3,164 nucleotides of DNA from Escherichia phage phiX174, in sequence record Z35638.1. The stretch is one strand, 5' to 3'. The notes beneath the pieces are model-generated. The model saw only the letters and a program-made list of their open reading frames with translations. It was not told the origin of the DNA and did not search any database. The first letter of the stretch is position 1. Each line of letters starts with the position of its first letter. Positions 1,232-3,164 of this stretch are shown here, one piece after another. The position numbers and the translations under genes are program-made.

Positions 1232-1836
1232 TTGAGATCCTTTTTTTCTGCGCGTAATCTGCTGCTTGCAAACAAAAAAACCACCGCTACCAGCGGTGGT
1301 TTGTTTGCCGGATCAAGAGCTACCAACTCTTTTTCCGAAGGTAACTGGCTTCAGCAGAGCGCAGATACCAAATACTGTCCTTCTAGTGTAGCCGTAGTTA
1401 GGCCACCACTTCAAGAACTCTGTAGCACCGCCTACATACCTCGCTCTGCTAATCCTGTTACCAGTGGCTGCTGCCAGTGGCGATAAGTCGTGTCTTACCG
1501 GGTTGGACTCAAGACGATAGTTACCGGATAAGGCGCAGCGGTCGGGCTGAACGGGGGGTTCGTGCACACAGCCCAGCTTGGAGCGAACGACCTACACCGA
1601 ACTGAGATACCTACAGCGTGAGCATTGAGAAAGCGCCACGCTTCCCGAAGGGAGAAAGGCGGACAGGTATCCGGTAAGCGGCAGGGTCGGAACAGGAGAG
1701 CGCACGAGGGAGCTTCCAGGGGGAAACGCCTGGTATCTTTATAGTCCTGTCGGGTTTCGCCACCTCTGACTTGAGCGTCGATTTTTGTGATGCTCGTCAG
1801 GGGGGCGGAGCCTATGGAAAAACGCCAGCAACGCGG
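1232..1836 (+). other. ColE1/pMB1-type plasmid origin of replication (RNA II primer region); RNA II promoter -35 TTGAGA 1232-1237, -10 TAATCT 1255-1260, RNA II start about 1267, RNA-to-DNA switch about 1820
   Basis: Sequence ttgagatcctttttttctgcgcgtaatctgctgcttgcaaacaaaaaaaccaccgctaccagcggtggtttg ... gcctatggaaaaacgccagcaacgcgg matches the pBR322/pUC origin as recalled; promoter hexamers with 17-bp spacer read directly. Confidence 0.9.
1271..1378 (-). ncRNA. RNA I, antisense copy-number control RNA (about 108 nt) complementary to the 5' end of RNA II; promoter on the minus strand around 1384-1414
   Basis: Reverse complement of 1368-1378 is ACAGTATTTGG, the recalled RNA I 5' end; the stem accaccgctaccagcggtggt (1281-1301) plus adjacent A-run (T-run on the minus strand) forms its terminator. 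Ends are approximate. Confidence 0.7.
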
Positions 1837-2217: not shown

Positions 2218-2241
2218 ATGACCATGATTACGCCAAGCTGA
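2218..2241 (+). other. Truncated lacZ' leader: ATG ACC ATG ATT ACG CCA AGC TGA (MTMITPS then stop), ended by a stop at the junction scar
   Basis: Direct translation; the TGA at 2239-2241 spans the altered HindIII site (aagctG) and the first bases of the EcoRI site. Confidence 0.6.
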
Positions 2242-2250
2242 ATTCAGCTT
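2235..2250. other. Cloning scar: filled-in HindIII site with inserted EcoRI hexamer (aagct-gaattc-agctt); EcoRI at 2240-2245, with a second EcoRI at 2764-2769 at the far end of the insert
   Basis: Seen directly: AAGCT + GAATTC + AGCTT is what a Klenow-filled HindIII end joined to GAATTC produces. The pUC polylinker between HindIII and EcoRI is absent. Confidence 0.55.
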
Positions 2251-2266
2251 ACTCCCCATCCCCCTG

Positions 2267-2294
2267 TTGACAATTAATCATCGGCTCGTATAAT
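2267..2294 (+). promoter_or_regulatory. tac hybrid promoter: -35 TTGACA (2267-2272), 16-bp spacer, -10 TATAAT (2289-2294); SD AGGA at 2328-2331; BamHI GGATCC at 2336-2341
   Basis: Consensus hexamers with 16-bp spacer read directly; the surrounding actccccatccccctgttgacaattaatcatcggctcgtataatg matches the commercial tac promoter cassette as recalled. Confidence 0.9.
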
Positions 2295-2336
2295 GTGTGG
2301 AATTGTGAGCGGATAACAATTTCACACAGGAAACAG
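2283..2336 (+). repeat. Direct repeat copy 2 (tac promoter -10/lacO/SD segment), 54 bp
   Basis: ggctcgtatAAtgtgtggaattgtgagcggataacaatttcacacaggaaacag; differs from copy 1 only at the two -10 bases. Confidence 0.85.
2301..2321. promoter_or_regulatory. lac operator O1, second copy, within the tac promoter transcript start region
   Basis: Exact aattgtgagcggataacaatt seen directly. Confidence 0.9.
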
Positions 2337-2448
2337 GATCCTGCCGTTTTGGATTTAACCGAAGATGATTTCGATTTTCTGACGAGTAACAAAGTTTGGA
2401 TTGCTACTGACCGCTCTCGTGCTCGTCGCTGCGTTGAGGCTTGCGTTT

Positions 2449-3019
<571 letters not shown>

Positions 3020-3164
3020 TTAAGCCAGCCCCGACACCCGCCAACACCCGCTGACGCGCCCTGACGGGCTTGTCTGCTCCCGGCATCCGCTTACAGACAA
3101 GCTGTGACCGTCTCCGGGAGCTGCATGTGTCAGAGGTTTTCACCGTCATCACCGAAACGCGCGA

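Follow-up and report, generated by a model that had tools for sequence, protein, structure and literature searches.

The mutation that gives the pUC origin its character is said to have been placed just outside RNA I by Lin-Chao et al. in 1992, with an effect that can reportedly be suppressed by Rop and rises with temperature, and which those authors reportedly ascribed to altered folding of RNA II and escape from inhibition by RNA I. Published accounts describe the origins of pUC19 and pBR322 as differing by one point mutation, which increases copy number approximately tenfold (PMC11132462; also PMC11897241, PMC5168713), place this copy-up mutation in the primer RNA II (PMC11132462, PMC11897241, PMC5168713; all citing Lin-Chao et al. 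1992), and identify TEM-116 as the bla of pUC (PMC11132462; PMC11897241; PMC5168713). The window, that is, the whole 3,164-base stretch of DNA that was analysed, is a complete small plasmid with the following layout.

1-2232: first block of pUC19 backbone (bla, origin, lac promoter and start of lacZ-alpha), the reverse complement of positions 2686-455 of the pUC19 record, with 100% identity to the pUC portion of U36911
201-1061, plus strand: bla, of the pUC type (TEM-116)
Between bla and the lac promoter: origin of the pMB1/ColE1 type
2233-2768, plus strand: insert of 536 bp in place of the polylinker, comprising EcoRI, tac promoter, BamHI, phiX174 D'-E-J' and EcoRI
2449-2724, plus strand: lysis gene E, within the phiX174 D'-E-J' segment at 2336-2765
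2769-3164: second block of pUC19 backbone (the remainder of lacZ-alpha up to position 1 of the record), likewise with 100% identity to the pUC portion of U36911

The two markers in bla, A444 and T745, are both in the pUC state, whereas pBR322-type bla contigs carry G and C at these positions; A444 specifies V84I, while T745 specifies A184V and removes a PstI site, as in TEM-116. The bla region is moreover 100% identical to a stretch annotated at 100% as blaTEM-116, which bears out the description of this gene as pUC-type in the earlier note. That note had also taken the origin to lack rop, and this holds, as two Rop peptide words of 11-12 residues were looked for in all six reading frames without a match, and no Rop-like open reading frame was listed. 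The pUC-specific junction between origin and lac (1991-2060) is present exactly in 67 shotgun-sequenced contigs among the matches listed, all of which are otherwise pUC-like. The record therefore has the absence of rop, the TEM-116 bla, and the ori-lac junction with lacZ-alpha that are expected of a pUC backbone; the copy-up T at RNA II nt 112 is the pUC feature that it does not have, the base at 1379 being C.

The origin itself (approximately 600 bp, 1232-1836) shares 99.5-100% identity with many records derived from pBR322 or pUC, and contains the following features.

1268-1822, plus strand: RNA II pre-primer, its 5' end (GCAAACAAAAAAACC) and its length of 555 nt to the origin both inferred from ColE1/pMB1 knowledge
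1272-1378, minus strand: RNA I antisense regulator (Rfam match at 1376-1272; canonical 5' end at 1378)
1377-1418, plus strand: predicted RNA II hairpin (nt 110-151), in which C112 lies opposite A149 as a mismatch and U112 would pair with A149
1379, plus strand: pUC copy-number site, RNA II nt 112, position 1308 of the pUC19 record; the C found here is the pBR322/pMB1 wild-type base
1624-1625, plus strand: dinucleotide AT (gagcATtgag), positions 1063-1062 of the pUC19 record; TA in every sequenced ColE1/pMB1-type origin examined

The Rfam RNAI model (RF00106) aligns over its full length to the minus strand (1376..1272; 73.7 bits, E-value 6e-13, gathering score 47); the model begins at AGUAUUUGG, and RNA I has a terminator-like hairpin at 1302..1278 with a T run after it. 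Position 1378 is the canonical 5' end of RNA I (ACAGUAUUUGG), and the complement of C1379 is consequently the base directly 5' of RNA I. The letters and the Rfam coordinates together thus confirm what had been claimed for this site, namely that position 1379 is C on the plus strand (context CCAAATACTGT-C-CTTCTAG), or G on the RNA I-sense strand, immediately upstream of the RNA I start. As RNA I is encoded on the minus strand, RNA II is encoded on the plus strand, and a start near 1268 makes position 1379 RNA II nt 112. The pUC change had been described as a G-to-A mutation of RNA II, for which the site was right and the wording was not, as the change in RNA II itself is C112 to U and 'G to A' is the wording of the RNA I-sense (pBR322 top) strand. 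A consensus promoter scan of 1150-1900 under a strict rule returned no sigma-70 match. An RNA I antisense to the beginning of the primer transcript, coupled with a near-identical origin, assigns the replicon, on the evidence of its letters, to the ColE1/pMB1 type.

Folding predictions were obtained for both states of the copy-number site. Folded on its own, the hairpin has a predicted energy of -10.1 kcal/mol with C112 and of -14.6 kcal/mol with U112; a stabilisation by U112 of about 4.5 kcal/mol was likewise predicted when longer fragments of RNA II were folded at 30, 37 and 42 C, and the z-score against shuffled sequences went from -0.9 (C) to -2.8 (U). The U112 of pUC would, by this model, close the C.A mismatch between nt 112 and 149 of the RNA II hairpin, and the result, being a thermodynamic prediction, is consistent with a folding-based mechanism rather than proof of one.

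The state of both origin sites in physically sequenced DNA was obtained by scanning a pattern which spans 1379 and 1622-1626 over species-representative genomes and metagenome assemblies, where vector DNA represents shotgun-sequenced contamination; 239 contigs were among the matches listed. At the 1379 site these 239 contigs divide into 146 with T and 93 with C. T is the base in all 67 contigs with the pUC ori-lac junction among the matches listed, while the 46 listed contigs that link rop to a C-type origin all have C and account for 46 of the 93 C-type contigs. The earlier note had given the polarity of this site as A/T in pUC and G/C in pBR322, and these two sets of listed contigs (67/67 and 46/46) are in full agreement with it. 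The bla markers follow the same division, both pUC markers being found together in 71 T contigs versus 1 C contig among the matches listed, and TEM-1 markers in most of the C-type contigs that include bla. When the window was compared with the 67 listed pUC ori-lac contigs, consistent differences were seen at 1379, 1624 and 1625 only, all 67 having T at 1379, T at 1624 and A at 1625.

Differences from real pUC DNA at 2087 and 2886-2887 had also been considered and were dropped, as they represent variants of other vector families and not of pUC19. In 11 contaminant contigs (L006, L027, L039, L044, L045, L084 and others) lacZ-alpha reads CGCACCGAAACGCCC for CGCACCGATCGCCC, with loss of the PvuI site, at the equivalent of window positions 2879-2892, and in 22 contigs, at the counterpart of 2081-2092 upstream of the CAP site, GAAAGCAATTGGCAG replaces GAAAGCGGGCAG; the CGCACCGAAACGCCC and GAAAGCAATTGGCAG variants presumably belong to other engineered vector families. 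In two metagenome contigs, L209 and L240, a rop gene accompanies the pUC T at the copy-number site; Rop, according to what Lin-Chao et al. reportedly found in 1992, suppresses the pUC mutation, and this combination should blunt the copy-up effect. Within the matches L006-L244, at least 120 species-representative genome assemblies have contigs of pMB1-origin vectors, and Streptomyces, Mesorhizobium and Vibrio, as well as metagenome-assembled genomes, are among those affected. Contamination by cloning vectors is widespread in public assemblies.

The second site of interest was read correctly in the earlier note, positions 1619-1628 being gagcattgag, and was interpreted wrongly, as that note took gagcattgag as pBR322-like and gagctatgag as the pUC form. 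CTATG, and not CATTG, was found at 1622-1626 in all 239 contigs listed, including all 93 of the C type and the 46 of those with rop; as contigs with the pBR322-type base carry CTATG, CATTG is not a difference between pBR322 and pUC. An exact 31-mer with CATTG had no occurrence in metagenome_contigs and none in viral_contigs, and none of the 935 E. coli RefSeq matches to a 59-nt CATTG probe was at 99% identity or above. In the plasmid collection, U36911 and U36912 were the only full-length matches to the probe at 100% among those listed, the next best listed being at 96.6%; two further records fall in the band of at least 99%, presumably as partial probe matches. CATTG looks like a spelling that exists in text only, most simply an old misreading or sequencing error, and may serve as a handy marker of copied legacy origin text in other records.

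The same two records stand out when the backbone is considered as a whole. U36911, which describes a shuttle plasmid under an accession from the 1990s series, has a pUC part that matches positions 1-2232 and 2769-3164 of the window (2,628 bp) at 100%, and U36911 and U36912 are the only ones among more than 5,000 plasmid records to match the origin at 100%. The window ends, GACG...GCGA, correspond to the complementary strand of the 2,686-bp pUC19 GenBank record, the ends of which are quoted in bioRxiv 10.1101/2024.02.28.582384; both pUC19 records are now at version.2. Primer coordinates given for L09137.2 (PMC9978351) map exactly, such that the pUC19 position is 2687 - w, where w is the position in the window, and 1379 is thereby pUC19 position 1308, 1624-1625 are 1063-1062 and CATTG occupies 1061-1065. 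Both signs of legacy text, namely the CATTG spelling and the linearisation point and register of pUC19, are thus found in the window, which was evidently made by editing a pUC19 file. A literature search for a paper on discrepancies between the old and revised pUC19 records returned none.

From these observations we consider, with a probability of approximately 0.9, that the origin text was copied from a legacy pUC19 reference and was not read from the plasmid. The identity of the source as that legacy reference is inferred through U36911. The old reference was reportedly compiled in 1985 from the 1979 sequence of pBR322, before the pUC mutation was found in 1992, and as it predates that finding it would have the pBR322 base at RNA II nt 112 (C1379). 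The plasmid record would have been assembled on paper from the old pUC19 reference, in reverse-complement register, and a designed cassette of tac promoter and phiX174 gene E; the old reference would have brought with it both the pBR322 base at 1379 and an old misreading, CATTG for CTATG, and the 'pBR322-type origin with pUC-type bla' would be a property of the text and not of the DNA. The earlier note had offered a legacy in-silico compilation as one of two options, and this option is now strongly supported by the 100% identity to U36911, by the pUC19 register and by the restriction of differences from the 67 listed pUC backbones to three bases; its best evidence is the second site, CATTG, which was found only in database text.

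The insert was also counted in favour of assembly on paper. Its phage part is 95% identical to phiX174, and the segment at 2336-2765 carries 21 engineered substitutions, each of them silent in gene E, which alter 14 residues in the overlapping D frame. Eight unique sites result from these substitutions (NheI 2475, HindIII 2511, BclI 2519, SalI 2535, EagI 2548, SacI 2556, XhoI 2601 and PstI 2628), and silent changes of this kind identify the insert as a design; the gene E insert is a construct designed for cassette mutagenesis. A literature search for the publication behind the engineered gene E cassette found none, and the search for a physically sequenced relative returned wild-type phiX174 genomes only, at approximately 95%. 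Two tandem promoters, lac and tac, both of them carrying a lac operator, are directed into gene E (2100-2340), and the plasmid has no copy of lacI. At EcoRI 2764 the initial 12 codons of phiX174 J are joined in frame to lacZ-alpha (open reading frame 2729-3019), and the HindIII site of the polylinker has been lost (aagctg at 2236-2241).

If the origin text was copied, C1379 is uninformative on the DNA of the plasmid itself. The pUC mutation is probably present in the physical plasmid; if built from ordinary pUC19, its DNA would have T at 1379 and it would have the pUC copy number.

The alternative that survives best, though we regard it as improbable, is that the physical plasmid truly has the wild-type pMB1 base (C1379) in a pUC backbone without rop, by reversion or by choice. 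A rop-less plasmid with the wild-type pMB1 base has a copy number of a few tens per cell as against hundreds, and a motive for such a choice could be found in the toxicity that leaky lysis protein E, expressed from tac/lac without lacI on the plasmid, would have at pUC copy number; with tandem lac and tac promoters reading onto a lysis gene and no lacI, selection for lower copy is plausible. The combination of C, TEM-116 and no rop does moreover occur in real vectors of the pQE type (L003, L120). However, C was found in none of the 67 sequenced pUC ori-lac backbones among the matches listed, in the window it is accompanied by the AT dinucleotide that is absent from the sequenced DNA searched, and the rest of the backbone is 100% identical to U36911, so that a text which was not determined from the plasmid lends this possibility no support. 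The other option of the earlier note, a true wild-type pMB1 origin, accordingly fails to gain support from a record that does not inform on the physical base. A more particular form of this alternative, in which the plasmid has reverted from T to C at RNA II nt 112 under selection against lethal leaky phiX174 E at pUC copy number, with only AT having been copied and the match to legacy text at 1379 being coincidental, we consider very improbable.

It is highly improbable that the sequence was determined de novo and that the three differences represent fresh sequencing errors or private mutations. Nothing specific speaks for this, beyond the fact that old gel reads can swap neighbouring bases (AT/TA); against it, the same three bases, and no others in 2,628 bp, are common to the independent records U36911 and U36912, and independent errors would not be expected to coincide at the same three bases. 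A true chimeric backbone, with the origin segment taken from pBR322 and not from pUC, either physically or on paper, would account for C1379 as the pBR322 state (C in 46/46 contigs with rop linked to a C-type origin, among the matches listed), but was rejected as hardly credible, as both flanks are continuous pUC sequence (bla of the pUC type and, opposite it, the pUC-specific ori-lac junction), neither a breakpoint nor rop is present, and contigs with the pBR322-type base have CTATG and not CATTG.

Copying of the origin from a legacy reference, the reading that we prefer, has practical consequences. Records which contain old pUC19 text misreport the very base that sets the pUC copy number, with the result that annotation tools or readers may mislabel an origin as 'pBR322-type' or deduce a low copy number from it. 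Users of the gene E plasmid should expect a pUC-like copy number, strong titration of LacI and leaky lysis, unless resequencing shows otherwise. The value of these observations lies in data hygiene and in caution over annotation and reagents, and not in new biology; all of it is already known, from the standard origin and the textbook mutation of copy number to the relic of a reference sequence.

Among known systems, vectors of the pQE type (T5-lacO, lambda t0, cat, rrnB T1; L003 and L120) share with the window the C at the copy-number site, both TEM-116 markers and the lack of rop, but they are without the pUC ori-lac junction and lacZ-alpha, have CTATG and represent an unrelated lineage. L003 is NZ_CP097216.1 and L120 is a genome contig, both of them real sequenced DNA, and one of the two was deposited as an 'unnamed plasmid' of E. 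coli from piglet faeces. The wild-type pMB1 origin of pBR322 shares the C at nt 112 and is the same over the RNA I/RNA II region except at 1624-1625; pBR322-type contigs often have rop, carry mostly TEM-1 and have CTATG, whereas the window has no rop, TEM-116 and CATTG. Physical DNA of the pUC type, with the copy-up origin of Lin-Chao 1992, is the same over bla, origin and lac except for three bases, having T at 1379 (67/67 listed) and TA at 1624-1625 (239/239 listed) where the window has C and AT. The original pUC19 reference before its revision (Yanisch-Perron, Vieira and Messing 1985; L09137/M77789 in their first versions) has the same register, would have the same 2,628-bp backbone and shares the TEM-116 bla, the absence of rop and the lac promoter with lacZ-alpha; judging by U36911, it would also have C at 1308 (in window orientation) and AT at 1062-1063, and it differs from the window in having a polylinker where the latter has its 536-bp cassette.
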